NCBI GenBank assembly: GCA_963797475.1
Contig: CAWCPR010000001.1
Location: 53,284-117,283, forward strand
Source of the DNA: an uncultured Chloroflexia bacterium
GTDB taxonomy: Bacteria; Chloroflexota; Anaerolineae; Anaerolineales; UBA4823
Reading direction: 5' to 3'
DNA length: 64,000 nt
In this document: piece by piece, positions 1,972-63,027 of the stretch
How the letters are laid out: each line of letters opens with the position of its first letter
How positions within the stretch are numbered: position 1 is the first letter of the stretch
Notes under the pieces: model-generated
The model's database searches: none
The model's input: the letters and a program-made list of their open reading frames with translations, nothing else
Told to the model about the DNA's origin: nothing
Translations under genes and position numbers: made by a program

Positions 1972-4187
1972 TTGCCTCCGGCAGAAACCCACAACAAGGT
2001 CGCGGCCCAATGGGCATGGGCAGCGGCATGATGATGCAGGGCGCCAAAGCGCGCGATTTCAAAGGCACCATGATCAAGCTGGCCCACTACCTGGGGGCGT
2101 ACAAGCTGCCCGTCTCGCTGGTACTGGTTTTCGCCATTGCTTCCACCATCTTCTCCATCGTCGGCCCGAAGATCTTAGGCAACGCCACGACGAAATTGTT
2201 CGAAGGCGTGCTGAGCCAGATCGCCGGCACCGGCTCGATCGATTTTGACTATATCGGCAACATCATTCTTTTGATGACCGGGCTGTACCTGCTCTCCGGC
2301 CTGTTCAGCGTCATCCAGGGCTGGATTATGTCCGGCGTTTCGATGGATATCACTTATCGCCTGCGCAAGGATATCGCCGAGAAGATCAACCGGATGCCGC
2401 TGCGCTACTTCGACGGAACAAATCACGGCGAGGTCCTTTCGCGCATCACCAACGATGTGGACACGGTAAACCAGACCCTCAACCAGAGCCTGACCCAGAT
2501 TATCACTTCGGTCACCACTGTGATCGGGGTGACCGTTATGATGTTCTCCATAAGCTGGTTGATGAGCCTGGTCGCCATTCTCATCGTCCCGCTGTCGTTC
2601 GTGATCATCGGGTTTGTGATCAAGAAATCGCAGAAATACTTCAAGGAGCAGCAGGACTATCTTGGGCACGTGAACGGCCACGTCGAGGAAATGTACAGCG
2701 GCCACGTCGTGATGAAAGCCTTCAACGGCGAGCAAAAAAGCATCGAGAAATTTGAGGTCTACAACGACAAGCTGTACAATTCGGCCTGGAAATCTCAATT
2801 CCTGTCGGGGATGATGATGCCGGTCATGACCTTTGTCGGCAACCTGGGTTACGTGGCTGTGGCGATCCTGGGCGGCTGGCTGGCGATCCGCAACGCGATC
2901 ACGGTGGGCGATATCCAGGCCTTCATCCAGTACGTGCGGACCTTCATGCAGCCGATCTCGCAACTGGCGAATATCTCGAACGTGCTCCAGCAGACCGCCG
3001 CGGCTGCCGAACGCGTGTTTGAGTTTCTGGACGAGGACGAAGAAATCCCCGAGACCAGCAATCCCATCCAACTGCCCAGCCTGGAAGGCTGCGTGGAGTT
3101 CCAGCACGTTCATTTTGGCTACACCCCGGAGAAAACGATCATCAAGGATTTCTCCGCCATCGCCATGCCGGGACAGAAGGTCGCCATCGTCGGGCCGACC
3201 GGGGCCGGCAAGACGACCATCGTAAAACTGCTGATGCGCTTTTACGACGTAGACAGCGGCGCAATCCTGATCGACGGGCATGATATCCGCCAATTCTCAC
3301 GCCGTGACCTGCGCAAAATGTTTGGGATGGTCCTGCAAGACGCCTGGCTTTTCAATGGAACGGTCATGGACAATATCCGCTACGGCCGCTTCGAGGCCAG
3401 TGAAGAGCAGGTCGTCGCGGCCGCCAGGGCCGCCCGGGTCGACCATTTCGTGCGCTCCCTGCCGGAAGGCTACGATATGGAGCTCAACGAGGAATCCTCC
3501 AACGTATCGCAGGGCCAGTTGCAGCTCTTAACCATCGCCCGCGCCATTCTGGCGGATCCCAAGCTCTTGATCCTGGACGAGGCCACCAGCTCGGTGGATA
3601 CCCGCACGGAAGTGCTCATCCAAAAAGCGATGGACACGCTCATGGCCGGCCGGACCAGCTTTGTCATCGCCCACCGCCTGTCCACGATTCGCAACGCGGA
3701 TTTGATCCTGGTGATGAATGAAGGGGATATCGTCGAGCAGGGCAAACACCAGGAGCTGCTCGCCCGGGGCGGCTTCTATGCCGAGATCTATAACAGCCAG
3801 TTCGCCAAAACGGACGAGAATGGGAACGGGAATGGGAAAGTGGATGGAAAAGTGGACGGGAATGGAAATGGGCGCGCCGCCGCTGAGCCCGTTCTTGACC
3901 TGGCCCAGGCGCCAGGCCTGAATGGTGGATCCGGGAACGCCCGGCAGTACATCCTGCAGGCCTACCAGGCCTTGCAGATGGGCGAGCTGGCCAAAGCGCG
4001 CCAGCTTGCCGAAGAAACCGCGCGCTTGAACCCCAATTACGAGGCGTCCTACTTGATCCTGGCTGCCCTGGCAACCCCCATCGATTCCATTGAGTACCTG
4101 ATGAAGGCCCTGGACGTCAACCCATCCAGCAAGCGCGCCCGCGAGGGGATGGCCTGGGCGTTGGAGAAGCTGCGCGATTCGGCTTAG
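1968..4187 (+). CDS. ABC exporter subunit (TMD+NBD), heterodimer partner, with C-terminal Gly/Asn repeat and TPR-like tail
   Basis: The start at ATG 1968 overlaps the upstream stop. The protein has a Gly/Met-rich N-terminus, six TM helices, Walker A GPTGAGKTT, signature VSQGQLQLLTIARAIL and Walker B LILDEATSSVD. The tail after the NBD carries GNGNGKVDGKVDGNGNG followed by helical repeats. The ORF-track start at 1914 is judged too early. Confidence 0.9.
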   Translation: MIASGRNPQQGRGPMGMGSGMMMQGAKARDFKGTMIKLAHYLGAYKLPVSLVLVFAIASTIFSIVGPKILGNATTKLFEGVLSQIAGTGSIDFDYIGNIILLMTGLYLLSGLFSVIQGWIMSGVSMDITYRLRKDIAEKINRMPLRYFDGTNHGEVLSRITNDVDTVNQTLNQSLTQIITSVTTVIGVTVMMFSISWLMSLVAILIVPLSFVIIGFVIKKSQKYFKEQQDYLGHVNGHVEEMYSGHVVMKAFNGEQKSIEKFEVYNDKLYNSAWKSQFLSGMMMPVMTFVGNLGYVAVAILGGWLAIRNAITVGDIQAFIQYVRTFMQPISQLANISNVLQQTAAAAERVFEFLDEDEEIPETSNPIQLPSLEGCVEFQHVHFGYTPEKTIIKDFSAIAMPGQKVAIVGPTGAGKTTIVKLLMRFYDVDSGAILIDGHDIRQFSRRDLRKMFGMVLQDAWLFNGTVMDNIRYGRFEASEEQVVAAARAARVDHFVRSLPEGYDMELNEESSNVSQGQLQLLTIARAILADPKLLILDEATSSVDTRTEVLIQKAMDTLMAGRTSFVIAHRLSTIRNADLILVMNEGDIVEQGKHQELLARGGFYAEIYNSQFAKTDENGNGNGKVDGKVDGNGNGRAAAEPVLDLAQAPGLNGGSGNARQYILQAYQALQMGELAKARQLAEETARLNPNYEASYLILAALATPIDSIEYLMKALDVNPSSKRAREGMAWALEKLRDSA

Positions 4188-9442: not shown

Positions 9443-9469
9443 TTTTATCTCCTATAGAAATTAACAGGC

Positions 9470-9725
9470 TTGTGGGCGACGGGCGCAAGAGCGACGGGCA
9501 CAAGGCCCTATGCTACCGGGACGATGGGACGCCGACGGGCACATGTAGCATAGCCCCTTGTGGGCGACGGACACATGTAGCATAGCCCCTGTGGGCGTTA
9601 GAGCCCCTTGTGGGCGACGGACACATGTAGCAAAGCCCCTTGTGGGCGACGGACACATGTAGCATAGCCCCTTGTGGGCGACGGACACAAGCGACGGGCA
9701 CAAGGCCCTATGCTACGATACTGGT
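9470..9725. repeat. REP-like palindromic repeat array (about four tandem 32-bp units TTGTGGGCGACGGACACATGTAGCATAGCCCC flanked by inverted GCGACGGGCACAAGGCCCTATGCTAC copies)
   Basis: Direct reading: contiguous units with no spacers, and the flanking copies are in inverted orientation. Confidence 0.8.
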
Positions 9726-14512: not shown

Positions 14513-16582
14513 TCAGAGCACCTTGAGCGCCTGCAGCAGCCCGGTGGCTGCCGAAGCGGCCGCTTTCATCATCTCGGTCCGGTTGGCCTGCGCCTGCCGG
14601 ACCATATCCAGGTGGATGGACCACAAAGCCTGGTCGATCTCGCCGGAGTCTTCCGGCACGACCACCTGGGTATCGCCATCGATCTTGATCATGGTGAAGG
14701 CGCGCAGTTTGGCGCCAGGAGGGATGTCGTTGCCAGTGCCGACCGCGGCCATGTCCTCGACAACGTAGGTGGAAACCTGCAAGGTGGCGGCGTCGTCGAC
14801 CGCCTTGGCCAGGGCTTTGCCCAGGTTCTCGGCGAACTGCTGGACGGCGTTGGTCAGGCGGGCGCGCGTGTCCGAAAGGCTGTCCAGCAGGCCAAAATCC
14901 ACACCGGCGGCGTCGACGACCGCCGTTGCCGTCAGGGTCAGACTTGCGGCGGCCCCAACGGAGGCGGCTTGAGCGCCGGCTGCGGGGGCGGGCGCAGCTT
15001 CTGCCGCAGGGCCGCCCTCCTGGCTCAAGGCGCTGGGAGTTTTCGGTTCCGCGGAAGCGCCGGGGGATACGGCGGCGGGCGACTGCACCGCGCTCGTCAC
15101 GAAGACCGGGCGCTCGAGGGGCTTTTCGCCGCCGGCGACCACCGGCAGGCGCACGGCCGGGTCGCCGATAATCGTGTAGCCGCGGGCGTCGTTGTTGGCC
15201 GTCCACTTGCCGGCCAGCTCGTACGGATCGACCTTCTTGCCAAATTCCACGTCTTCCAGATCGTCGCTCAGCACAGTCGAAAGCTCGGCGTAGCGATTGT
15301 TAAAATACTCGATCGCTGCCCCAACCGGTTTGCCGGTGAACAGGCTTAACAAAGCGCTCTCGAATACGGTGGTCTGTTTCCCGGCGTCGGGCCACAAGAA
15401 AGAATAACCCCAGGCGCGCTCCACATGGCCGACCACCGCCAGGGCCCCGCCGCGCGGGTGGCCGAGCAGCTTCCTGGGCAGTCGAGCCAAAAAGGGCGCT
15501 TTGGCGATGGGCTTGGGCTGCTTGAAAGCCTGCCTGGAGAACTCGTCGATGAGCGGCGTGCCGGCCCCGTAGCAGGCGAAGAAAAAGGCGATCAGCCCCA
15601 ACAGGCCGGCATCGGAGGCCAGGTCTTCCCCGGTGAAGTAGAAATCCTGCGGGACGGCGCCTTTGCCCTGCCAGGCCGCCGGACCGGGCCAATCCTGGCA
15701 GAGCAGCGCCCCCTGGCGCACGGTCTGGTCCTGGCTGTCCAATGAGAAGCTCATCCCGTGGCTGGCGCTGAAGAGCAAGGCCGGGGTCTGGTCGCCGCCC
15801 AGCAGGCGGCTGAGCTGGGCCTTGGTGGCCTGGTCGCGCAGGACGGCGTCGAACTCCCAGCCCTTGAGATTTTCTTTTTCTTGATCCTTATCCTTGAATG
15901 TGGTGTACAGGGGCTCGACCAGGTTGTCGGCGCTCAGTTGGGTGGCTTTATCGCCCGGGTTGGAAACGCCGAAAAACGAAGCCCGGCGAGGCAGCTTCAG
16001 CTTACCGGATTCGGCCGTCGCCACGCTGTGGGCGTAGCTGGCGTATTCCCCTGGCGTGTCGAAATGGATGCGGCCGACCGCGTATTGCACGTCGAGCTGG
16101 CTTTGAAAGCGGTAGGGGATCTCGGCCGGGCTGCCGGCGACCAGCAGGTAATAGGGTATATTTTCAGGATCCGCCGGCCCGGGCCCTGCGCCGTGACGGG
16201 CCAGGAAATCTGTCTTGGATTCGTCCGGCCGGTAGCCGTCCGGGCCCTCATAGATGCGGAAATGGTCGCCGGCCTGCTCGCGGCGCAGGTCGATCAGCTC
16301 CTTCAACGCATCCTTAATTGCCGGGTCCGCATTGGCCGGGAAGATCACGCCCCAGCCGGACTCGGCCAGGTTGTACGGGTCCACCCCTTCCTTGACCCCA
16401 AAGTCTGTTTCGGTGGAGCGCTTGTGGCGGAATTTGAGCTCGCTGAGATTCTCGGGCGTGCCTTCGCCCTCGATGAACTTAGCAAGCTGCTCGCCCGTCA
16501 AAGGCGGCAGGGAATATTCGCCAGTTTCGCCATCGATGCCGTTGAAGAAGAGAAGTTCTTGTTCGGCGGGTGCATCGGTCAT
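14513..16582 (-). CDS. Caspase-like (clan CD) cysteine peptidase with low-complexity linker and C-terminal small domain
   Basis: His then Cys catalytic order: ALLFSASHGMSF ... IAFFFACYGAGT. An Ala/Pro-rich linker follows. The C-terminal approximately 90 aa are homologous to the 111-aa neighbour. Confidence 0.7.
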   Translation of the reverse strand: MTDAPAEQELLFFNGIDGETGEYSLPPLTGEQLAKFIEGEGTPENLSELKFRHKRSTETDFGVKEGVDPYNLAESGWGVIFPANADPAIKDALKELIDLRREQAGDHFRIYEGPDGYRPDESKTDFLARHGAGPGPADPENIPYYLLVAGSPAEIPYRFQSQLDVQYAVGRIHFDTPGEYASYAHSVATAESGKLKLPRRASFFGVSNPGDKATQLSADNLVEPLYTTFKDKDQEKENLKGWEFDAVLRDQATKAQLSRLLGGDQTPALLFSASHGMSFSLDSQDQTVRQGALLCQDWPGPAAWQGKGAVPQDFYFTGEDLASDAGLLGLIAFFFACYGAGTPLIDEFSRQAFKQPKPIAKAPFLARLPRKLLGHPRGGALAVVGHVERAWGYSFLWPDAGKQTTVFESALLSLFTGKPVGAAIEYFNNRYAELSTVLSDDLEDVEFGKKVDPYELAGKWTANNDARGYTIIGDPAVRLPVVAGGEKPLERPVFVTSAVQSPAAVSPGASAEPKTPSALSQEGGPAAEAAPAPAAGAQAASVGAAASLTLTATAVVDAAGVDFGLLDSLSDTRARLTNAVQQFAENLGKALAKAVDDAATLQVSTYVVEDMAAVGTGNDIPPGAKLRAFTMIKIDGDTQVVVPEDSGEIDQALWSIHLDMVRQAQANRTEMMKAAASAATGLLQALKVL

Positions 16583-16734: not shown

Positions 16735-17010
16735 AATATGAGGCGGGCGCCCTCACCCCTGCCCCTGCCCTCACCCCTGCCCCTCTCCCGCGTGCGGGAG
16801 AGGGAAGATCTCGATGTCACAGGTCACCTGACTGACGCGACTCCCTTTCTCGCCCTCACCGTGCGGGAGAGGGGAATCGACAGGACTCCTTCGATGTCAC
16901 AGGTCACCTGATTGAACGCGACTCCCTTTCTCGCCCTCACCGCGTGCGGGAGAGGGGAATCCGCCTGGCAAGGACTCCTTCGATGTCACAGGTCACCTGG
17001 CCGGACGCAA
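16735..17010. repeat. Tandem array of three repeats of about 75-78 bp, each with GC-rich hairpin (CTCTCCCGCGTGCGGGAGAG) and GATGTCACAGGTCACCTG box
   Basis: Direct reading: three near-identical consecutive units in the region between the 16582 gene start and the 17231 gene end. Confidence 0.8.
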
Positions 17011-17230
17011 CTCCCCTTCTCGCCCAAAATTTGGGAGAGAAGGGGCTGGGGGATGTGAGGGCCAGGGCGTAAGTCGCAGCCGCGACGAAGAGCGCCCTCT
17101 GGGCGTCCATGCCTCTCCCCGAGCAGGGACCAAAGCCTGATGTTGAACGCCGCCATTAATCACAAGGCCAGGAGCTGCAAGTGCTTGAGCCTGCAGCTCC
17201 TGATTCTTCCGGCGTTACAGAAAAAACGGC

Positions 17231-20200
17231 TTACTGGGCGACCAACGTCACATTCTTCGGATTGTAATTCACAGTATACCCCTGCCCATGCCCATCGATT
17301 GTGGCAAACTGACCGGCGCGTGCGGCAAAGGTCATCACGATAAAGCTGTCGCCAAGGGTAGGAACATAACCGCCGGCCAACGTGACGTCCAGCGCGCCGT
17401 CTAAGGTTGCATTTCCAACGATGGCGAACTGATCATACTCTGTAATCGGAGCCTGGCCGCCAATTTTTACATGCAGAACGCCGCTGGCGGTCTGGGTGAA
17501 ATCCCCGCCAAAACGCAACTGTCCCGACTGGACGTCCACGCTGCCGCTGTTGACGAAGGCCGGATTTACGCGGGTCTCGCCGCTGCCGCCCGATTTTGTG
17601 AGGGAGCCGTGGTTCTGGAAAGATGCCCCGCCCGTACTGATATAGATGAAGTCATCGCCCTGGAAGTCGAAGGTCGCTCCCGCCAGGTTGGCGATGACTG
17701 CCGCATGGTAGGCGGTGAGCGAGCCGTCCAGGAGAACTGCCGCCCCGGCGTTCTCCAGGCTGCGACCATCCAGGTAGCGCCCGTAGCTGCCGCTGAAGGT
17801 CAGGCCGCCGTTGGCCCGCGTGGTCCCAATGCCGCTCATGGTGCCGTAGTTCCAGGTCAGCATGCCTGCCACATCCACGTCCCCGTTTCCCGTCAGCGTC
17901 CCGCCGCTCATCGTCAGGGCGCTGGTGCCGGCGGTCAGGCCAGCGCTGACCGAGAGCGTGCCGCCAGCCAGGGTGGTGTTGGCTGCAGTGTAAGTGCCGC
18001 TCAGGGTGAGCGTGCCGGAGCTGAGGCGCACATTGAGACCAGAGAGGCTGCCGCTCAAGGTGTGCGACCCGCCGCCGATCTCCAGGGTTCCGGCGCCCTG
18101 GAACGAGCCGGCGTCCATACCGCCGCCTCGCAAGGTGAGCGTGCCAGCCTGCACGTCGACGACCCCGCTGTTGTTGAGCGGGATGTAGATGCTCGCCGAC
18201 CCGCTGCCAGCCGATTTGCTGAGCGTCCCCTGGTTGTCGAACGTGGCGCCTCCCGTGCTGGAGTAGATGAAGTCATCGCCCTGGAAGTCGAAGGTGGCTC
18301 CCGCCAGGTTGGCGATGACTGCCGCATGGTAGGCGGTGAGCGAGCCGTCCAGGAGGGCTGCCGTCCCGGCGTTCTCCAGGCTGCGGCCGTCCAGGTAGCG
18401 CCCGTAGCTGCCGCTGAAGGTCAGGCCGCCGTTGGCCCGCGTGGTCCCAATGCCGCTCATGGTGCCGTAGTTCCAGGTCAGCAAGCCTGCCACATCCACA
18501 TCCCCGTTCCCCGTCAGCGTCCCGCCGCTCATCGTCAGGGCGCCGGTGCCGGCGGTCAGGCCAGCGCTGACCGAGAACGTGCCGCCGGCCAGGGTGGTGT
18601 TGGTTGCAGTGTACGTGCCGCTCAGGGTGAGTGTGCCGGAGCTGAGGCGCACATTGAGACCAGAGAGGCTGCCGCTCAGGGTGTGCGACCCGCCGCCGAT
18701 CTCCAGCGTGCCGGCGCCCTGGAACGAGCCGGCGTCCACGCCGCCGCCTCGCAAGGTGAGCGTGCCAGCCTGCACGTCGACTACGCCGCTGTTGTTGAGC
18801 GGGACGTAGATGCTCGCCGACCCGCTGCCAGCCGATTTGCTGAGCGTCCCCTGGTTGTCGAACGTGGCGCCTCCCGTGCTGGAGTAGATGAAGTCATCGC
18901 CCTGGAAGTCGAAGGTGGCTCCCGCCAGGTTGGCGATGACTGCCGCATGGTAGGCCGTGAGCGAGCCGTCCAGGAAGACTGCCGCCCCGGCGTTCTCCAG
19001 GCTGCGGCCGTCCAGATAGCGCCCGTAGCTGCCGCTGAAGGTCAGGCCGCCGTTGGCCCGCGTGGTCCCTATGCCGCTCATCGTGCCGTTGTTCCAGGTC
19101 AGCATGCCTGCCACGGCCACGTCCCCATTCCCCGCCAGCGTCCCGCCGCTCATCGTCAGGGTGCCGGTCAATACGGAGGCCTGCCCGATATCCAACGTCC
19201 CGCCGGAAAGTACGATCGCTGCCTCGCTTTTCAAGCTGAGAACGGCATCCGCGCCACGGGAATGGACGATCGTGACAGCTCCGGGAACATCGATAATCAC
19301 ATTCTGAGTGGGGCCGGGTATGAGATTGGGTTTCCAGTTGAAAGGATCGTGCCAGGAGGTGCCATCGCCTTCGCCGTCCCAATAGACGGTGCCGTAGCCG
19401 GGCTGTTCGTGGAAGAAATCGAAAAAGAGGAACACAAAATCCCCGGTTGCCGGGCCGACCCCCTCTATTATGCGGGTTTTATTGTTCGCCACGTCATAGG
19501 CGACGGCTGTAAAGGGCTCCCCAGCGGGGATGAGAGGCACAAAGAAGTAGCCGCCCGGGTCTGCTACTCCGCTGAAGGGAATGGGTGAACCGGCCGAGAA
19601 TACCTTAATGATCACCGGGCTGGCTGCTTGCGGAGCGCGAGCGGCGCCGCCTCCACCTCCGCCCACGTTGCCGCACCCATTGCCGCCTGGAGGCGGCGCG
19701 GAGCCCATACCGGTCAGCCCGGAGCCGCCGCCCGTCTGGGAAGGCGAGCAAACAAGCGCCGGTGTTGGCGGCGGGCATTCAGCATCGCCGAGAAACCAGA
19801 TTTCTATCATCCCAAAAACTATCGTCAATCCGGCGGCGCAAAGGCCGCCAGCAAGCGGGCTAAAAATTATTGCACAGCCCAGGGACGTCAGGGTTATCCC
19901 TACCAGAACGAGCGAACGGATAATTTTAAGCTGGGTCTTCGTAAAACAGCCGGCCAAAAGGCGTGAAATCGAGTCCGCTTCCAGTTGGTTTGCCTGCGCC
20001 AGGATGCCCGAATTTTCGATGAGCGTGGCCGCGTCGATCAAAAATTGCTGAACCGCGGGCGATGGGTCACTGCTGAGCTGTTCAAAAATAGAACCGGTCT
20101 CGGTAAACTCAATAATCAATTGAGCCAACTTGTCATTGGTACCGACAGAGGTCTGGATCCCATTCAGAGTGGCCAACGATTGGGTGAAGAAGTCATGGAT

Positions 20201-21430
20201 AATGTCACTGGCTGGCCTGTTGATTGGGGTTGGCTCTTCCACCGTGATCGCGATTGACTGTGTTGTTGCGCCCGTGCTTTCATTGCGAAAGGAAAGCGTT
20301 GCAGGCCCGGCTGGCAATATCGGGAGGATGGCAGAGAGCGTTTGGGAAGAGCTTTGCCCGTCTAAATCCGGGCTTAGCAGGGCCGGCAATTCAATTTTTG
20401 TGCCATCTACCGACGAAAGAAAAACGGCCACATTCCCAGACAGCGAATAGGGGTTAAAGCCCGTGGTTTCTACCTCGATGCTCGTGCCGGGCGGACCCGA
20501 GATACCGGCCTGAACGCCAGCCACAGAAAAGCTCTGGCTGGAGACGACCGCCGAGCCCTTTAACAAAACCTGCGGGATGGGGTCAGAAATGACGTCGTTG
20601 TTCGGCGCAACGCTGGCGCTGTTGACGACCACGATTTCATCCACACCGTCGCCATCCGCGTCCGGCATAATCTGGTAGTTGACCACCACCTGGCCCGGCT
20701 GGACTCGGTTGCCAAAATCGGCTGAAGCTACCCGGTAGGGCAGGGAAATCGGAGCCGGGCTTTGAATACTTTGCGCTCCCAGGAAAGTGACTCCCATCGC
20801 ATCCCAATTGATGCCGTTTTGCGCGGTCACTTCTTGCTGGGTCAGCTCATCCACCGAGACGGACGTTCCGTCCGGCAGCGCGCCTGGAGGGATCGTGATG
20901 ATGCTGCCGATCTCGCTGCCCAAGACACCTCCCTGCGAGCCGATGACCCCGCTCGATGGGGGATTGGGCAGTACATTGACGGTGATGCTTTTGCTGGTTT
21001 GTCCGCTGGGTCCGCTGGCGACGGCTGTCAGGGTTAAGTTCCCCGCCGGGAACGCGCTGGCATCGAAAAAGACTTGATAGCCATCGCCCGGGGTGTTGTC
21101 GACGCCCAAGGAGGTCGTGGCTGCGCTGAACGCCACGCGGGTCACGGTCTTCGGATCACGCGGCTGGGCAGCCAGGTACAGCATGCCGCTGACGGTCCAG
21201 CCATCGGATGGGCTGGTAATTTCAAAGTCTGGAGGCCCAGGCGGTGTGACAATGATCGGCAAGAAAATGGTATTGGGCGCTTCAATGCCAGTTTGCGCCA
21301 GACGGTTCTGACCTTGCAAACGGCTGGCGGCCTGAAGTGTTTGAGCCTGCACAGCCAGGGGCTGGAAGGAGAGAGCAAATACTAAACAGGCCATTAAAAT
21401 CCGAGATGTCGTTTGGTGTTTCATATGCAT
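17231..21430 (-). CDS. Giant surface/secreted protein with signal peptide, Ig-like N-terminal region, internal hydrophobic/Gly-rich segment and autotransporter-type (PATR) beta-helix repeats
   Basis: Signal peptide MKHQTTSRILMACLVFALSFQPLAVQAQ. Three near-identical units of about 165 aa (...GSYGRYLDGRSLENAG...TLTLRGGG...) with G.L.L.G repeat texture. A TM-like stretch LVLVGITLTSLGCAIIFSPLAGGLCAAGL and a Gly run GGGGGGAARAP. Confidence 0.85.
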   Translation of the reverse strand: MHMKHQTTSRILMACLVFALSFQPLAVQAQTLQAASRLQGQNRLAQTGIEAPNTIFLPIIVTPPGPPDFEITSPSDGWTVSGMLYLAAQPRDPKTVTRVAFSAATTSLGVDNTPGDGYQVFFDASAFPAGNLTLTAVASGPSGQTSKSITVNVLPNPPSSGVIGSQGGVLGSEIGSIITIPPGALPDGTSVSVDELTQQEVTAQNGINWDAMGVTFLGAQSIQSPAPISLPYRVASADFGNRVQPGQVVVNYQIMPDADGDGVDEIVVVNSASVAPNNDVISDPIPQVLLKGSAVVSSQSFSVAGVQAGISGPPGTSIEVETTGFNPYSLSGNVAVFLSSVDGTKIELPALLSPDLDGQSSSQTLSAILPILPAGPATLSFRNESTGATTQSIAITVEEPTPINRPASDIIHDFFTQSLATLNGIQTSVGTNDKLAQLIIEFTETGSIFEQLSSDPSPAVQQFLIDAATLIENSGILAQANQLEADSISRLLAGCFTKTQLKIIRSLVLVGITLTSLGCAIIFSPLAGGLCAAGLTIVFGMIEIWFLGDAECPPPTPALVCSPSQTGGGSGLTGMGSAPPPGGNGCGNVGGGGGGAARAPQAASPVIIKVFSAGSPIPFSGVADPGGYFFVPLIPAGEPFTAVAYDVANNKTRIIEGVGPATGDFVFLFFDFFHEQPGYGTVYWDGEGDGTSWHDPFNWKPNLIPGPTQNVIIDVPGAVTIVHSRGADAVLSLKSEAAIVLSGGTLDIGQASVLTGTLTMSGGTLAGNGDVAVAGMLTWNNGTMSGIGTTRANGGLTFSGSYGRYLDGRSLENAGAAVFLDGSLTAYHAAVIANLAGATFDFQGDDFIYSSTGGATFDNQGTLSKSAGSGSASIYVPLNNSGVVDVQAGTLTLRGGGVDAGSFQGAGTLEIGGGSHTLSGSLSGLNVRLSSGTLTLSGTYTATNTTLAGGTFSVSAGLTAGTGALTMSGGTLTGNGDVDVAGLLTWNYGTMSGIGTTRANGGLTFSGSYGRYLDGRSLENAGTAALLDGSLTAYHAAVIANLAGATFDFQGDDFIYSSTGGATFDNQGTLSKSAGSGSASIYIPLNNSGVVDVQAGTLTLRGGGMDAGSFQGAGTLEIGGGSHTLSGSLSGLNVRLSSGTLTLSGTYTAANTTLAGGTLSVSAGLTAGTSALTMSGGTLTGNGDVDVAGMLTWNYGTMSGIGTTRANGGLTFSGSYGRYLDGRSLENAGAAVLLDGSLTAYHAAVIANLAGATFDFQGDDFIYISTGGASFQNHGSLTKSGGSGETRVNPAFVNSGSVDVQSGQLRFGGDFTQTASGVLHVKIGGQAPITEYDQFAIVGNATLDGALDVTLAGGYVPTLGDSFIVMTFAARAGQFATIDGHGQGYTVNYNPKNVTLVAQ

Positions 21431-21553: not shown

Positions 21554-23653
21554 TTACTGCTCCTGAGGCGCCGCTTCAACGGGTTGGGTATGGATATCGA
21601 TAGAACCTAAAAACAAGGCCAGGTCAGTGATCTCTGAGGCGTTCAAAGCGTTGCCATTTTCTTGCGGGTCGGGGTGGCCGGAAGCCAACAACGCCTCCAG
21701 GTTCGGCATCGAGCCATCGTGCAGGTAGGGGGCGGTCAGGTTGACGTTCAGCAGGGAAGGAGGGTCGAAACCCGTCTCCCCGCGCACATCGCGAGGATTC
21801 AGACTGCCCACATCCAACAAGACGCCATCCATCATTCCGTTTCCATCCGGGTCTAAGGTTCCGGCCGGCCCGGGTAAAGCGCTGTTCGTCCAGTTTGGCC
21901 CGCCATGACAGGTCGCGCAGCCAGCCGATTGGAACAGCTCTCGCCCGCGGGAGACATCGCCTGCGGGGGAAGCCAGCGCAGGAACCGGTATCCCGGCGTC
22001 CAGGAAAGCCGCCAGGGCATCCAGGGCTGAGGAACGGCCGCCGTTCGGCGTTCCCAGCAGCGCCGGATCGGCGCCTGGCGCCAGCCCCACGCCATGCTGA
22101 ATGAGCTGCAGGGTCTCTTCCACATCCTGGGCTTCATCCAGGGCCGCCGACCAGTGCCAGGGCAGGGTGTGAGAAGCGTTCCACAGGGGCGGAGTTTGGC
22201 GCGGGCCGTCCGGGAACATCCAGGTGAGGCCATCTGTACCCCCATCCGGGTGACAACTGGCGCAGGACATCCACGAGCCTTGACTGAGGCGCGGGTCAGC
22301 AGCGTAATTGAACAGGATCTTGCCTTGTAGGATCTCTGGCGGCAGCAATTCAGCGCTGACCTTGATTTCGGAAACCTGCTTCAGACTTTCCAGATCGAGA
22401 ACCGTGATCGAGCGCCCGAGGTAGTTCATCACGTAGCCCCGGCGGCCGTCAGGGCTAAGGGCCATGCCGCGCGGATTCATCCCCACCGGTAAAAAGGTTA
22501 CCAGCCGGGGTTGGTCCGGCGTAGAAATATCCACCACTTCCACCAGATTGCTTCCGGCCAGGACAATATAAAGCCTTTGCCCGTCCGGGTCAGGGATTGC
22601 AGCCAGCGGGTTATTCACGGGCGACCCAAATATGACCTGATCGTTGAGCGGTAGATAGGCGGCGGCATATTCCCGGGCCTTTTCCAGATCCAGCGTCGAA
22701 ACCGCGGCGAACAACGTGGTGGTCAATCCGCGTGGCAAATCCGGGGCGGCGCGCTCGTAAGGCAGCCAGGCGCGAGAACCCAGAATGGTGATCCCCATGA
22801 GCAAGCTAGGAAAACCATGCTCGTCTGGGAGCAGCGTGATTTGCCCGGAAACGGCGTTGGCGGCAGGGTCGATGATCGTGACGCGCCCCTGGCGGCTGTC
22901 GTCCCGTCCTTCTTCGCCGCCCGCACGTGGAAAGGCCTGCTGGTGGGTGACATACACCCGCTCATCCAGATCTTCGTTGTCGCCATCATCGCTGATGGCA
23001 ACTGCAAATGGCCTGGCAGCCACCGGGATTGCCGCGATCTGCTCCAGGCTGGCGGTGTCGAATACGGCTACCTGGTCTGAAGTCGTGAGGGAGATGTAGG
23101 CTCGCGAGCCGCTTGGGGTCAAAGCCAGGCTGGCCGGTTCCGGCCCGACCGGGAGGCTGGCTTGCACCCTTTTCGCCAGGCCATCGATCACCACCAGCGT
23201 CCCGGCTGCCCGGTCTAAGACGAAAACGCGGCGGCCGTCTACCGCCATGGCGACCGACCAGGGCGTCTGCCCAACCGGGATTTCGGCCGTCTTTTCCAGG
23301 GAAGCCGCATCGAGCACGCTGATCGAGCCTGAATCAGGGTTCGCCACCCAAACCGACCCGTCAAGCGGCGAAATGGCCAAAGGCCCACTCCCGGAGACCT
23401 TTCCACTCTCGCCGTTGGCCCGGGTGACGAAGGGCAGATACGTGGCAGCGGTGTCTGTATTCAAGGGTTGTCGCAGCTCAGCCGCGCGGACCTGGCCTCC
23501 CAAAAAGATACTGGCGATACCGGTTATGACCAGCAGGATGAATTTGCGAGGGTGTGAGAAGTGTTGGGCGCCTTGGCGCGCTACGCAACACGATTTCAGA
23601 TATTCATCAAAATAGGTCGCCATTTTCGCGAAAGATGATTTTGCCGCTCCCAT
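21554..23653 (-). CDS. YVTN-type beta-propeller fused to di-haem cytochrome c peroxidase-like domain
   Basis: Two CxxCH motifs (CASCHPDGG, CATCHGGPN) and repeated ...SV.V.D....V..I propeller blades. The true start is probably downstream of the listed ATG, near the signal peptide KFILLVITGIASIFLGGQVRA. Confidence 0.75.
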   Translation of the reverse strand: MGAAKSSFAKMATYFDEYLKSCCVARQGAQHFSHPRKFILLVITGIASIFLGGQVRAAELRQPLNTDTAATYLPFVTRANGESGKVSGSGPLAISPLDGSVWVANPDSGSISVLDAASLEKTAEIPVGQTPWSVAMAVDGRRVFVLDRAAGTLVVIDGLAKRVQASLPVGPEPASLALTPSGSRAYISLTTSDQVAVFDTASLEQIAAIPVAARPFAVAISDDGDNEDLDERVYVTHQQAFPRAGGEEGRDDSRQGRVTIIDPAANAVSGQITLLPDEHGFPSLLMGITILGSRAWLPYERAAPDLPRGLTTTLFAAVSTLDLEKAREYAAAYLPLNDQVIFGSPVNNPLAAIPDPDGQRLYIVLAGSNLVEVVDISTPDQPRLVTFLPVGMNPRGMALSPDGRRGYVMNYLGRSITVLDLESLKQVSEIKVSAELLPPEILQGKILFNYAADPRLSQGSWMSCASCHPDGGTDGLTWMFPDGPRQTPPLWNASHTLPWHWSAALDEAQDVEETLQLIQHGVGLAPGADPALLGTPNGGRSSALDALAAFLDAGIPVPALASPAGDVSRGRELFQSAGCATCHGGPNWTNSALPGPAGTLDPDGNGMMDGVLLDVGSLNPRDVRGETGFDPPSLLNVNLTAPYLHDGSMPNLEALLASGHPDPQENGNALNASEITDLALFLGSIDIHTQPVEAAPQEQ
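23561..23615 (+). repeat. Copy B of conserved bipartite ~60-nt motif
   Basis: GTGTTGGGCGCCTTGGCGCGCTACGCAACACGATTTCAGATATTCATCAAAATAG. It lies between convergent-tandem minus-strand genes, antisense to both. Confidence 0.7.
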
Positions 23654-30640: not shown

Positions 30641-30926
30641 CAGGAACCAACCAAGAACAAGAGATATGGCAGCCCCATATATGGGTGAAAATTCCAAAAT
30701 ATAGGTTTTAACCCCCGTATATGGGGCATTTTTACGCCGGAATTAACCTTGACATTTCCAATTCGTACTATAATTAAAGCGCGTACGCAGTTGGCAGGGG
30801 ACCGGCGTTGTGGCAGCGAGCACCAACCGCCAAAACACGCCTGTCGTCGCTGGCCGCGTACTTATCGATTAACCTGGTTAAGGCAGCCCAGCCCATGCGA
30901 CTTTCAGGCGGCTTCCCAGGACAAAA

Positions 30927-30982
30927 GTGTTGGGCGCGCTTTGCGGGCCGCGCAACATGATTTTAGATCAACATCAAAATAG
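30927..30982 (+). repeat. Copy C of conserved bipartite ~60-nt motif, ending 9 nt before the ATG of the SPFH gene (includes GGAG RBS)
   Basis: GTGTTGGGCGCGCTTTGCGGGCCGCGCAACATGATTTTAGATCAACATCAAAATAGGAG. Confidence 0.7.
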
Positions 30983-41689: not shown

Positions 41690-42230
41690 AGGATTGAATC
41701 CCCCTCATTCCCCCTTGAAAAGGGGGAGGCTTGGAATCCCCCTCGATCCCCCTTACTAAGGGGGACGTTTGGAATCCCCCCAAGGCGGTCACGCCGGGCA
41801 CAAGCTTGAATCCCCATACCCCCTTGAAAGGGCGACGTTTGAATCCACCAAGGCGGTCACACGCCGGGCACAAGCTTGGAATCCCCCTCAATCCCCCTTG
41901 CCAAGGGGGACGTTTGGAATCCCCCAAGGCGGTCACGCGTAGCATAGCCCCTTGTGGGCGACGGGCACAAGTCACACGCCGGGCACAAGCTTGGAATCCC
42001 CCTCGATCCCCCTTGCCAAGGGGGACGTTTGGAATCCCCCAAGGCGGTCACACGTAGCATAGCCCCTTGTGGGCGACGGGCACAAGTCACACGCCGGGCA
42101 CAAGCTTGGAATCCCCCTCGATCCCCCTTGCCAAGGGGGACGTTTGGAATTTCCCCAAGGCGGTCACGCGTAGCCCCTTGTGGGCGACGGGCACAAGGCC
42201 CTATACTACAATGCGCCGGGATGGTTTCAT
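41690..42230. repeat. Tandem array (~4 units of ~115-130 bp) of composite REP-like element containing CCCCCTTG..CAAGGGGG hairpins and GTAGCATAGCCCCTTGTGGGCGACGGGCACAAG modules
   Basis: Direct reading. The sub-motif family matches the arrays at 9470-9725 and 43620-43850. Confidence 0.8.
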
Positions 42231-42393: not shown

Positions 42394-43620
42394 ATGCTTT
42401 ACGACATGGTTTTCGAAGGGGGTGGTGCAAAAGGGACGGTCTTCGTCGGGGCGATGCAGGAGCTGCAATCGCGCGGCCACACGCCGGGACGCTTGCTGGG
42501 CACGTCCGCCGGCTCGATCATGGCGGCTTTGCTGGCGGCCGGCTACCAAACCGACGAGATGCAGCAGGCCCTGACCGAAAAGCAAAACGGCCAGCCGGTC
42601 TTCCTGGGCTTCCTGCAGATCCCGCCCCCGCTCACGCAAGACCAGATCGCCCACAGCACGGTGCGCGACCTGCTCCGCAAAGTCGACGTAAAATTAATCC
42701 CCGATTTTCTGGAAAACCAACTGGACAACGCCATCGCCGAGGCCCTGGCGACCTCCAGCTACACCAACCGCATCTTTTCCTTTCTCGAGCTGGGCGGTTT
42801 TTACGCCGCCGACACCTTTTTGACCTGGTTAAAGGGCAAACTCAATTCCGGCATCTACCCCCTGGAGCGCGGCGCCCACAAAAAAGGCGAGCAGCGCAAT
42901 TTTGGGGACATGAACCTGGCCGAATTCTTCGAGGCGACCGGCGTGGATCTCTCCGTGGTAGCGGCCAACACCCGCGACCGGGAAATGCTGATCCTGAACC
43001 ACCGCACCGCGCCGGACCTGCCGGCCGCCTGGGCGGTGCGCATGTCGATGAGCCTGCCGCTAGTCTGGCAGGAAGTCGTCTGGCAGCCCGAATGGGGCAA
43101 GTATCGCGGCGTGGATATCAGCGGCTGTTCAGTGGTGGATGGCGGCCTGCTCTCGAACTTCCCCATCGAGCTGTTCCTCTCCAACCAGCCGCAGGTCACC
43201 GGGGTGATGGGCGATTTGGTCGCCGGCGAACAGAATGTGCTCGGTTTCCTCATCGACGAGACGATTGAAGTCCCCGGCGCTCCCCCGCTGGAAACGAAGG
43301 AAAATGCATTCCAGGTCAGCGAGCTGCGCCCGGTCAGCCGGGTGACCAACCTGGTCAATACGATGCTTCAGGCGCACGATAAAAACGTGATCGAATCTTT
43401 CGAGCGCTTCGTCATTCGATTGCCGGCGAAAGGGTTCGGCACGATCGAGTTTGGCATGAGCGACGAGCGCCGCAACGCGTTGATCGCGGCCGGGCGGCAA
43501 GCCACCGCGACTTACTTCGACCGCCTGGAAGCCGGAGCCTCCTTCGGTGTGGGCGAAGCCACGGATCCGGCGGTGTCGAGCGCGGCCGACCGCATCGCGG
43601 CGCGCATGCTGTCGCGCTGA
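42394..43620 (+). CDS. Patatin-like phospholipase family protein
   Basis: Oxyanion motif GGGAKG, nucleophile elbow GTSAGS and catalytic DGG (VVDGGLLSNFP). Start chosen at ATG 42394 with RBS AGGAGGG. Confidence 0.85.
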   Translation: MLYDMVFEGGGAKGTVFVGAMQELQSRGHTPGRLLGTSAGSIMAALLAAGYQTDEMQQALTEKQNGQPVFLGFLQIPPPLTQDQIAHSTVRDLLRKVDVKLIPDFLENQLDNAIAEALATSSYTNRIFSFLELGGFYAADTFLTWLKGKLNSGIYPLERGAHKKGEQRNFGDMNLAEFFEATGVDLSVVAANTRDREMLILNHRTAPDLPAAWAVRMSMSLPLVWQEVVWQPEWGKYRGVDISGCSVVDGGLLSNFPIELFLSNQPQVTGVMGDLVAGEQNVLGFLIDETIEVPGAPPLETKENAFQVSELRPVSRVTNLVNTMLQAHDKNVIESFERFVIRLPAKGFGTIEFGMSDERRNALIAAGRQATATYFDRLEAGASFGVGEATDPAVSSAADRIAARMLSR

Positions 43621-43850
43621 CGCCCACAAGGGGCTATGCTACCGAACTTGTGCCCGTTGTGCCCGTTCGCCCTGACGCCCGCAATGGGTTACCGAACCAT
43701 GGCGGCCATCCGCAACGCCGGGCGCATGCTGTCGCGCTGACGCCTCAAGTAGCCTAGGGCCTTGTGCCCGTTGTGCCCATTGTGCCCGTTCGCGCTGACG
43801 CCCACAAGGGGCTATGCTACCGAACCATGGCGGCAGTCCGCCACAGGCAT
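43620..43850. repeat. REP-like element array in inverted orientation, including a duplicated copy of the last ~25 nt of the patatin gene
   Basis: CGCCCACAAGGGGCTATGCTAC at 43620 and 43798. GCGCATGCTGTCGCGCTGACGCC is present at both 43597-43620 and 43716-43740. Confidence 0.75.
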
Positions 43851-44179
43851 TTATTTGGCGGTGGGCGAGGCGGGACTGCGCTGCGCCAGGGACTGCTGGT
43901 ACTTCTTCCAGCCCGGGCACCAGGTCGTGTGCCAGCGCCACAGCCGGGACATGAACGATTTCGGGTAGGGTAAAATCGGCCCTGGTCGGGTGGGCAGTCT
44001 CTTGGTTAGAATTCTCTAATTATTTGTGAAATATATCATAAAGTTAATATTGCTGAACTACAATAATAATCGTAAAAGGATTATTTGGATCGTATTTCGT
44101 TTCTTCTGCAAATTTAAGGGATGCGACCCTTGTAATTACAGGAAACGATTTACAGAACCTCATGTTGTAAAGGAGATTA

Positions 44180-44938: not shown

Positions 44939-44958
44939 CTCTGGCAGGTGTATGATTA

Positions 44959-45039
44959 GTGTTGGGCGCTTGTGGCGCATCACGCAATATGATGGAGAGT
45001 TGCGGCTACGCCGCAATCTCCAGAGATTCATCAAAATAG
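44959..45039 (+). repeat. Copy D of conserved bipartite motif, with a 25-nt hairpin insertion (GGAGAGTTGCGGCTACGCCGCAATCTCC) between the two conserved blocks
   Basis: Direct comparison with the other copies; it lies 70 nt upstream of the 45112 start. Confidence 0.7.
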
Positions 45040-48196: not shown

Positions 48197-48220
48197 GAGG
48201 CTTGTGTTATCCCTGTATAA

Positions 48221-48276
48221 GTGTTGGGCGCGCTTTGCGGGCCACGCAACACGATTTTAGATAAACATCAAAATAG
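48221..48276 (+). repeat. Copy E of conserved bipartite ~60-nt motif
   Basis: GTGTTGGGCGCGCTTTGCGGGCCACGCAACACGATTTTAGATAAACATCAAAATAG. It lies in the divergent intergenic region between the GGDEF and cyclase genes. Confidence 0.7.
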
Positions 48277-62890: not shown

Positions 62891-62970
62891 CGGGCACGGA
62901 TCCGTCCAGCAGGGCGTCCAGGCCTGAATCTCGAAGACAGGCATCGCCCTGCTAAATTTCAACGGAAAAA

Positions 62971-63027
62971 GGGTCGGGCGCTTGTGGCGCACCACGCATT
63001 ATGGTGAAAAGAGTTTCATCAAAATAG
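62971..63027 (+). repeat. Copy F of conserved bipartite ~60-nt motif (5' block slightly diverged), immediately upstream of the GntR promoter
   Basis: GGTCGGGCGCTTGTGGCGCACCACGCATTATGGTGAAAAGAGTTTCATCAAAATAG. Confidence 0.65.

Follow-up and report, generated by a model that had tools for sequence, protein, structure and literature searches.

The window analysed here is a stretch of 64,000 nt (64 kb) from an uncultured Chloroflexia bacterium (GTDB order Anaerolineales, UBA4823; GenBank assembly GCA_963797475.1, contig CAWCPR010000001.1, positions 53,284 to 117,283), whose gene content includes STAND/WD40, CHAT and TPR proteins. Three clusters of a short palindromic repeat lie between its genes, at 9469-9716 (site 1), 41691-42209 (site 2) and 43621-43820 (site 3). 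We identify them with considerable confidence as clusters of GTAG-tagged repetitive extragenic palindromic (REP) elements, with dimers like those of REP doublets forming hairpins (REPINs) and bacterial interspersed mosaic elements (BIMEs), of a family that flanks the gene for a REP-associated tyrosine transposase (RAYT) in other genomes and in metagenomes. The family has dispersed, mostly extragenic copies and a constrained structure, and elsewhere it flanks a single small RAYT gene of the Y1/HUH type on both sides, in inverted orientation.

The repeat unit and its dimers

A covariance model of the repeat, derived from sequences that lie outside the window and applied with filters off, detects 14 units in the window at a threshold of E ≤ 0.05, 12 of them complete and two truncated, and all within the three sites; its best match elsewhere in the window has E 0.66. 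With up to three mismatches, the 26-nt motif GTAGCATAGCCCCTTGTGGGCGACGG matches the window seven times and the 21-nt motif GGGCACAAGGCCCTATGCTAC four times, each against 0.00 expected from 100 dinucleotide-preserving shuffles, and every match is confined to 9495-9716, 41939-42209 or 43617-43820. A first-pass annotation of the window had placed its repeat motifs at three sites, and these are indeed the only ones in the window.

The two motifs are one 22-nt unit seen on opposite strands and in two versions. In the unit, GTAG-CATA-GSSC-CTTGT-GSSC-G, the GTAG tag is joined by a 4-nt linker (CATA) to a G+C stem of 4 bp that is closed by the loop CTTGT. What we call the C-type (GTAG-CATA-GCCC-CTTGT-GGGC-G) and the G-type (GTAG-CATA-GGGC-CTTGT-GCCC-G) differ solely by a polarity flip of the 4-bp stem. 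All complete units in the window start with GTAG, and 10 of the 12 match the consensus or depart from it by a single mismatch.

The unit recurs well outside this genome. The 22-mer GTAGCATAGSSCCTTGTGSSCG, scanned over species-representative bacterial and archaeal genomes, matched at least 118 stretches, and the matches listed come from 57 assemblies, counted from record titles: 36 of Chloroflexota (mostly Anaerolineae), 15 of Desulfobacterota ("delta proteobacteria", among them Syntrophobacteraceae, Desulfarculales and Desulfatirhabdiaceae), two of Zixibacteria, two of Armatimonadota and two unclassified. The breadth goes beyond mis-binning, since several of these matches sit on contigs 0.6-6.2 Mb long. 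Among 2.9 million viral contigs there were just two matching stretches, from which we take it that the repeat is not phage-borne. Comparison of the window with the loci by blastn returned the repeat, one weak gene match and nothing else; at the protein level the highest identity is 54%, with a Chloroflexi MAG (metagenome-assembled genome). A full-text literature search for the exact motif strings returned no paper. The first-pass annotation had pointed out that its proposal would fall if the core occurred at these three sites alone, as simple local duplications of one another; occurrence in 57 genomes among the matches listed excludes this.

The stem is supported by covariation. The scan pattern permitted 16 combinations at the four S positions, and among 145 units in the at least 118 loci listed the variable stem pairs are complementary in 142 (GG/CC 68, CC/GG 52, CG/CG 12 and GC/GC 10). 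Because units ascertained in this way can hold only S at those positions, the stem test was redone with free stem positions on units ascertained through neighboring RAYT genes (described below). There 35 of 37 distinct sequences paired; paired cells reached 96.6% versus 73.1% in shuffles and double-sided changes 30 versus 12.9, values that were each attained in 0 of 500 shuffles, and the pairing signal collapses once the partner is slid by one column. In the tag, the same 37 units never depart from G1, T2 and A3, and conservation of G4 is at least 90%. The small stem-loop is therefore a constrained structure. Its covariation lies inside each arm, with none between arms, which points to recognition of a folded single-stranded nucleic acid over that of a symmetric double-stranded site.

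Units are commonly paired. Among the same 145 units there are 105 head-to-head pairs (both strands counted), whose spacers measure 1-56 nt, most often 6; 77 of these pairs are heterodimers of a G-type and a C-type unit, and seven are perfect palindromes. The pairs have the layout of REPINs, two inverted REPs and a spacer. In the window the C-type/G-type head-to-head pairs, tags outward, form imperfect hairpins of about 58-72 nt. Dimers fold at about -15 to -16 kcal/mol, with z about -4 to -5; the one at 9659-9716, folded as single-stranded DNA, reaches -16.2 kcal/mol (z = -4.74) as a hairpin of 9 bp plus 7 bp that is broken by two 2x2 mismatches.

Longer palindromes, which are lineage-specific, enclose about a third of the dimers: 29 of 79 have an exact inverted repeat of at least 8 nt in their 40-nt flanks, against 10 of 395 controls. 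Within these flanks (loci L001 to L118) the dimer core is more conserved than the surrounding sequence. Examples of the longer palindromes around the core are CTATCCGAAAA..TTTTCGGATAG, GTCGGAGAACC..GGTCTCCGAC-like and CAAGTTGCGTTCAAG..CTTGAACGCAACTTG. Target-site duplications were also sought, and direct repeats around 80 dimers proved to be at chance level for k = 2-8.

A RAYT gene flanked by the repeat

Open reading frames (ORFs) of the loci listed were clustered all against all and then searched by phmmer with the E. coli RayT of the annotated MG1655 record. Two large clusters were the generic PAS/GGDEF and ABC-transporter families, and a RAYT cluster had just three members, which could be recognised as such through phmmer alone; phmmer gave three homologues, in loci L053, L113 and L050. 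The RAYT homologue adjoins the repeat in L053, from an Anaerolineae metagenome-assembled genome (MAG), and in L113, from a Syntrophobacteraceae MAG. In L053 a head-to-head dimer gives the gene its stop codon by way of GTAG, and three dimers begin 12 nt 5′ of the start codon; in L113 single units stand on both sides of the gene, inverted and with tags outward. Identity is 65% between these two proteins and about 25% between either of them and E. coli RayT, and their HUH histidines (H73 and H75) and Y133 align with the HUH motif and Y115 of the E. coli protein, in which Y115 is the catalytic residue (PMC8266576). Both exceed the cut-off of Pfam Y1_Tnp (PF01797) and score 98.4 and 98.5 bits against the NCBIfam equivalog NF047646 ("REP-associated tyrosine transposase", cut-off 80), versus 18.9 bits against the IS200 model of NCBIfam (cut-off 55). 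Their best PDB match is TnpArep, 4ER8 (E = 5e-9).

Metagenomes were scanned with the alignment of these two proteins, using peptide patterns only and thus blind to the repeat, and yielded 25 loci with relatives at 61-100% identity. With units called at up to four mismatches, 23 of the 25 have units within 150 nt of the RAYT gene. Nineteen loci have sequence on both sides of the gene; units occur on both sides in 17 of these and in opposite orientation in 16. Unit density is 12.9/kb within 150 nt of the gene and 0.15/kb beyond 500 nt, an 85-fold difference. Several units beside these genes are identical to C- and G-type units of the window, and two of the loci (L138, 2671-2886; L139, 1920-2275) have, directly upstream of the RAYT gene, head-to-tail arrays of 7-11 units that recur every 33 nt, sharing the architecture of site 1. 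An associated RAYT, which the first-pass annotation had proposed to look for, has thus been found outside the window, flanked by the repeat in most of the metagenome loci. The same repeat-independent loci, together with the distribution over at least 118 stretches, bear out the earlier preference for a REP/BIME-like over a CRISPR assignment.

Two candidates were set aside. The RAYT of L050 (2e-26 to E. coli RayT) was rejected as the cognate enzyme, being flanked by a different GTAG repeat, GTAGCCCGGG / AACCCGGGTT-like. The Desulfatirhabdiaceae MAG from which L050 (5150-6200) comes also carries the GTAGCATAG family, and this genome therefore has two REP-RAYT systems, the second RAYT with a GTAG repeat of its own. 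Inverted copies 1.9 kb apart in L004 were considered as an autonomous element and rejected, the 404-aa ORF that they enclose being metabolic-looking and no transposase.

Architecture of the clusters

Site 1 begins with a head-to-head dimer truncated at its 5′ end (9469-9516; sequence, covariance model and half-unit scan), in which a C-type unit represented by its 3′ half, CTTGTGGGCG (9469-9478, + strand), is followed after a 16-nt spacer by a complete inverted G-type unit (9495-9516, - strand, 37.9 bits). A head-to-tail array then occupies 9545-9680 (+ strand), where same-orientation C-type units with a 10-nt spacer, GTAGCATAGCCCCTTGTGGGCG plus ACGGACACAT, recur with a period of 32 according to Tandem Repeats Finder and the covariance model. 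The array units are at 9545-9566 (38.6 bits), 9577-9597 (27.0 bits, with a 1-nt deletion), 9602-9616 (17.9 bits, 5′-truncated), 9627-9648 (32.2 bits, one mismatch) and 9659-9680 (38.6 bits). The last of these forms a complete head-to-head heterodimer (9659-9716, detected by inverted-repeat search) with a G-type unit across a 14-nt spacer (9695-9716, - strand). Tandem Repeats Finder reports the period of 32 in two runs, 9533-9597 (2.1 copies) and 9602-9689 (2.8 copies, 98% matches). Four head-to-tail units bracketed by inverted copies had been described here at first pass, and this is what we find, as four full units and a truncated one between the inverted units 9495-9516 and 9695-9716.

Site 2 has an upstream degenerate part (41691-41938, + strand; Tandem Repeats Finder and repeat families) made of 38- and 70-nt repeats of a module GGAATCCCCC..TCCCCCTTGNNAAGGGGGACGTTTGGAATCCCCC; it holds no complete REP unit and two lone inverted half-units CGGGCACAAG, at 41795 and 41865. 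Three tandem 115-nt units follow at 41939-42209 (Tandem Repeats Finder, covariance model and sequence), and their C-type units, all on the + strand, are at 41939-41960 (38.6 bits), 42054-42075 (38.6 bits) and 42170-42186 (20.9 bits, without CATAG). An inverted G-type unit comes 1 nt after each C-type unit, cut to CGGGCACAAG in the first two 115-nt units and complete in the third (42188-42209, - strand, 36.4 bits), where it closes a head-to-head heterodimer. Tandem Repeats Finder gives 3.0 copies of period 115 at 41856-42197 (95%), with the 70- and 38-nt arrays immediately upstream.

What site 2 repeats is one REP unit plus a 66-nt module holding the CCCCCTTGNNAAGGGGG hairpin. A local hairpin, CCCCCTTG..CAAGGGGG, has five copies in a pattern scan of the window, every one at site 2, and its module, sought as a possible second family, was found in 0 of 146 loci examined. 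We treat the module as local DNA because it is confined to site 2 and missing from all 146 loci. The first-pass count of about four longer units here, taken as members of the family, is accordingly revised: the 115-nt period stands, with three units, each of one REP unit and a CCCCCTTG..CAAGGGGG hairpin, and the longer units are a local reiteration of a REP unit with site-specific DNA and no part of the family. On the minus strand the hairpin module (41709-42140) reads CGTC followed by the palindrome CCCCTTGGCAAGGGG, which recalls the CGTC-tagged REP super-family (PMC3733652) as a resemblance only.

The first part of site 3 (43621-43692; sequence, covariance model and repeat family) contains an inverted C-type unit (43621-43642, - strand, 38.6 bits), two G-type 3′ half-units, CTTGTGCCCG and TTGTGCCCG (43647-43665, + strand; sequence and repeat family), and a decayed inverted unit, CGCCCGCAATGGGTTAC, recognised by its sequence at 43676-43692. 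Beyond it is a complete 72-nt head-to-head heterodimer (43749-43820; inverted-repeat search, covariance model and Tandem Repeats Finder), composed of a G-type unit with one mismatch (43749-43770, + strand, 36.8 bits) and a C-type unit (43799-43820, - strand, 38.6 bits). Its interior contains two additional 9-nt TTGTGCCCR repeats and a spacer that copies the final bases of the adjacent patatin ORF (TCGCGCTGA). Tandem Repeats Finder marks 9-nt mini-repeats at 43648-43667 and, within the dimer, at 43762-43790 (period 9, 3.2 copies). The inverted-orientation copies reported earlier at this site are evident both in the sequence and with the covariance model. Every cluster closes with a head-to-head pair of C-type and G-type units whose GTAG tags point outward (9659-9716, 42170-42209 and 43749-43820).

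Neighboring genes and genomic context

All three clusters lie between co-directional genes, 0-10 nt past a stop codon. The first-pass statement that all copies are intergenic is mostly right, with an exception at site 1: the TAG stop codon (9715-9713, minus strand) of a 1174-aa CHAT/HEAT ORF is part of the GTAG tag (9716-9713) of the unit at 9695-9716. At site 3 the unit at 43621 directly abuts the 3′ side of the TGA of the patatin ORF. A GTAG-derived TAG serves as stop codon both for the CHAT/HEAT ORF and for the RAYT gene of L053 (2857-2860), and in loci L120 and L121 a RAYT 100% identical to that of L053 adjoins a unit in the same manner. REP insertion thus defines the gene ends of the CHAT/HEAT ORF and the L053 RAYT gene.

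None of the three clusters shows a T-tract terminator signature. Rfam had no match over the whole window at gathering score, no CRISPR family included; at E ≤ 10 over site 1 its sole match was Mu-gpT-DE, at the chance level of E = 7.2. The window has no tRNAs.

Across the loci listed, 22% of units fall inside crude ORF-based gene interiors, versus 81% of the sequence being such interior. The genes flanking the repeat are unidirectional in 47 cases, convergent in 19 and divergent in 7, and units are depleted in divergent promoter regions. Three different Anaerolineae MAGs have a head-to-head REP dimer within an ABC operon of the Opp/Dpp type, where it separates the SBP_bac_5 solute-binding-protein gene from the first permease gene (L019, 3135-3200; L108, about 3725-3780; L115, about 2975-3025); the three operons are paralogous (27-46% identity). 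The malE-malF and hisJ-hisQ intergenic positions are classical REP sites in enterobacteria, malE-malF in E. coli, and the dimers of these three loci occupy the equivalent position.

Other repeats of the window

A second dispersed repeat, about 58 nt long (AAGTGTTGGGCGCGCTTTGCGGGCCGCGCAACATGATTTTAGAT.AACATCAAAATAG), occurs at 23558-23615, 30925-30982 and 48219-48276 and has shorter relatives at 44958-44999 and 62970-63011. Every copy is on the + strand, two are 95% identical, and Rfam has no match to them. Most stand just upstream of + strand ORF starts (30992, 48492, 45112 and 63115), and the repeat looks like a shared promoter or 5′-leader element. At 16749-17025, an 89-nt tandem repeat (2.5 copies, 86% matches), with an 18-nt GCCCTCACCCCTGCCCCT doublet before it, lies between the ORFs 14513-16582 (-) and 17231-21430 (-). 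Three 621-nt tandem coding repeats, 90-91% identical, occupy 17580-19121 within a 1399-aa ORF that has a bacterial Ig (Big_7) domain.

How the clusters may arise and spread

The E. coli, Stenotrophomonas and Marinomonas systems (PMC8266576, PMC3479197) suggest how such clusters could form. By analogy with them, the RAYT would bind the folded single-stranded unit, tag and hairpin together, would cut beside it through a 5′-phosphotyrosine link and would then rejoin strands. Strand rejoining could seed new copies, build local clusters and reiterate neighboring DNA, as in the 32-nt array of site 1 and the 115-nt array of site 2.

Expansion at three sites had been read at first pass as a sign of recent activity. 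Since the 22-mer is identical across phyla, copy identity is no clock and is uninformative on this point, so recent activity is unsupported; the cross-phylum identity indicates constraint, presumably from RAYT recognition, rather than youth.

We lean, by a modest degree, toward a further proposal, that a single REP-RAYT lineage, whose 22-nt REP is nearly invariant and whose RAYTs are 61-100% identical, passed horizontally between phyla, at least four in number (Chloroflexota, Desulfobacterota, Zixibacteria and Armatimonadota), and founded dispersed repeats in each. Anoxic sediment, peat and digester are their common habitats. Pertinent here are the identical core on Mb-scale single contigs from different phyla, its near absence from viral contigs and the RAYTs of an Anaerolineae and a Syntrophobacteraceae MAG, 65% identical and each about 25% identical to other RAYTs; a near-invariant core in at least four phyla, with RAYTs this similar across a phylum boundary, fits rare horizontal transfer.

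Weighing the alternatives

Several observations tell against identifying the clusters as part of a REP-RAYT system. No RAYT was found in the window, where tblastn reached a best E of 0.53 and phmmer with E. coli RayT returned nothing among the ORFs; this genome's cognate RAYT, if still existing, is outside the 64 kb. The 4-bp stem of a single unit folds marginally (-4.0 kcal/mol, z = -0.74), leaving covariation as its support. Copy number per genome is modest among the matches listed, at least eight separate loci in the best-sampled single MAGs, and published REP families often exceed 100 copies per genome (PMC2817692). Head-to-tail arrays, present here, are uncommon in the described families (PMC3733652).

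The missing RAYT gives its footing to the alternative that survives best, an unlikely one in our judgment: the repeats would be orphan REPs of the same family, in a genome that has lost its RAYT, and would persist as immobile relics that change by slippage and unequal recombination only. Many units are truncated or carry indels (9577-9597, 9602-9616, 42170-42186, 43676-43692), and the local tandem reiteration seen at all three sites is something that replication slippage can produce. Yet RAYTs typically number about one copy per genome (PMC5581495), so that absence from 64 kb says little, and the close agreement of 10 of the 12 complete units with the consensus does not suggest relics.

The position of the clusters, right after the stop codons of co-directional genes, raises a second alternative, which we consider improbable: a primarily RNA-level element under host selection, an mRNA 3′-end stabiliser or attenuator, to which the transposase link would be secondary. 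The dimers between binding-protein and permease genes, echoing malE-malF, would fit it, as would the depletion in divergent promoter regions and a sequence constancy across phyla that suggests constraint. Against it stand the lack of an Rfam family and of a T-tract terminator signature, a stem without G-U enrichment (one U-G in 148 cells), and quasi-palindromic units that occur in both orientations; nor would an RNA function alone explain the 85-fold enrichment beside RAYT genes. An RNA-level role is nevertheless compatible with the RAYT-linked REP identification as an added one. The hairpins after stop codons are presumably transcribed with the co-directional genes and may protect upstream mRNA 3′ ends, a role suggested by that position and by the dimers between binding-protein and permease genes of the three ABC operons.

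The first-pass annotation had offered a MITE (miniature inverted-repeat transposable element) as a second option, and the units are short, dispersed and non-coding with inverted ends (GTAGCATAG / CTATGCTAC), as would be expected of one that descends from a classical insertion sequence of the DDE type, which has terminal inverted repeats and makes target-site duplications. We regard this origin as highly improbable: the direct repeats flanking 80 dimers stay at chance, ORF clustering over the loci listed revealed no repeat-linked DDE transposase, stem covariation within arms is unexpected if terminal inverted repeats are recognised as double strands, and the gene that is linked to the repeat is a Y1/HUH RAYT. 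Purely local tandem duplication (a minisatellite or variable number of tandem repeats) or a degenerate CRISPR array, with no wider family, has the tandem periodicity of all three sites in its favor and can be dismissed, as the core recurs in 57 other genomes among the matches listed and at 25 metagenome loci, the units abut or are parted by repeated 10-nt or 93-nt segments in place of unique spacers of regular length, and no Rfam CRISPR family matches the window.

Comparison with known systems

As a RAYT-linked REP family, the repeat has much in common with the GTAG-tagged REP super-family (Di Nocera, De Gregorio and Rocco, 2013; PMC3733652), which is characterised by a tag left unpaired, a short G+C stem-loop that exists in complementary variants, location downstream of genes, head-to-head dimers and heterodimers, clusters in which flanking DNA is reiterated, and the nesting of dimers in longer palindromes. 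Shared are the terminal GTAG, the short G+C stem-loop with complementary stem variants, tags-outward head-to-head dimers with a preference for heterodimers, clusters reiterating units together with flanking DNA, the nesting in longer palindromes (29 of 79 here), and the location downstream of genes, between unidirectional or convergent ORFs. Published examples include the head-to-head heterodimers of GTAG-24 in P. aeruginosa and the clustered GTAG-23 of Thermomicrobium roseum (Chloroflexi), and a preference for heterodimers has been suggested to protect from cleavage of long perfect hairpins (PMC3733652). Unlike the published GTAG families, whose stems have 5-13 bp, the family here has a 4-bp stem and a 4-nt linker between tag and stem, and its dimer partners differ by a full flip of stem polarity (PMC3733652). 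It may nevertheless equal one of the 24 published families (PMC3733652).

With the REP/BIME system of E. coli and its RayT (YafM, TnpA-REP; "REPtron Ec", 4ER8), the family shares a single small Y1/HUH gene between inverted REPs, two REP types (like Y and Z) in mosaic clusters, and a conserved HUH motif and catalytic tyrosine; inverted REPs are known to flank RAYT genes (PMC2817692). In E. coli the REP measures about 35 nt and its bulged 12-bp stem follows GTAG directly, whereas the unit here is 22 nt with a linker. E. coli BIMEs alternate regularly in orientation, and site 1 differs in being a same-orientation array capped by inverted units. BIMEs are defined by evenly spaced REPs of different types that alternate in orientation; in the window C- and G-types are oppositely oriented at cluster ends, but the body of site 1 has one orientation, and site 2 repeats a unit with foreign DNA. 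The group 3 RAYT of Marinomonas sp. MWYL1 ("REPtron Mb") likewise has a REP with a very short perfect stem and a linker to GTAG, of 5 bp and 2 nt (PMC8266576), which puts the very small unit here within the known range. RAYTs cleave single-stranded REPs, and in REPtron Mb the loop positions matter for cleavage, which takes place at CT/CA sites (PMC8266576). Its sequence, loop and phylum differ from those of the family described here.

The REPINs of Pseudomonas fluorescens SBW25 (Bertels and Rainey; PMC3337134, PMC5581495) have the same repeated unit of two inverted REPs and a spacer, together with a single-copy RAYT that the repeats far outnumber, as here. REPIN-RAYT systems are described as mostly vertically inherited (PMC3337134, PMC5581495); in contrast, we find an identical 22-mer in at least four phyla and, unlike the lineage-bound systems of the SBW25 type, RAYTs 65% identical between a Chloroflexota and a Desulfobacterota MAG. 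Bertels et al. considered rare horizontal transfer likely over long time scales, and found Group 4 RAYTs over 17 classes and common in Caldilineae (PMC5581495). The IS200/IS605 family (TnpA Y1 transposases) has the same enzyme fold and chemistry and recognises folded single-stranded hairpins; the RAYT here differs in falling below the IS200 model cut-off and above that for RAYTs, and the hairpin units, which occur alone, are vastly more numerous than the gene.

Significance

This is a familiar type of bacterial repeat and no new kind of system, unusual chiefly for its near-unchanged recurrence in several phyla. The combination of a 4-bp stem with a 4-nt linker, strict polarity-flip heterodimers, head-to-tail arrays and a core common to at least four phyla is moderately unusual. 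A defined REP unit and its cognate RAYT clade should aid annotation in Chloroflexota and Desulfobacterota, largely uncultured phyla in which repeats of this sort have been catalogued poorly; the clusters provide stop codons, break assemblies and create spurious ORFs (9461-9703 and 43639-43941 in the window). The very small unit and its strict constancy across phyla make a convenient substrate for tests of RAYT target recognition and of the horizontal spread of REP-RAYT systems. If the horizontally moving lineage is real, it would be a counter-example to strictly vertical REPIN-RAYT inheritance and would offer a natural experiment on the founding of new repeat populations.

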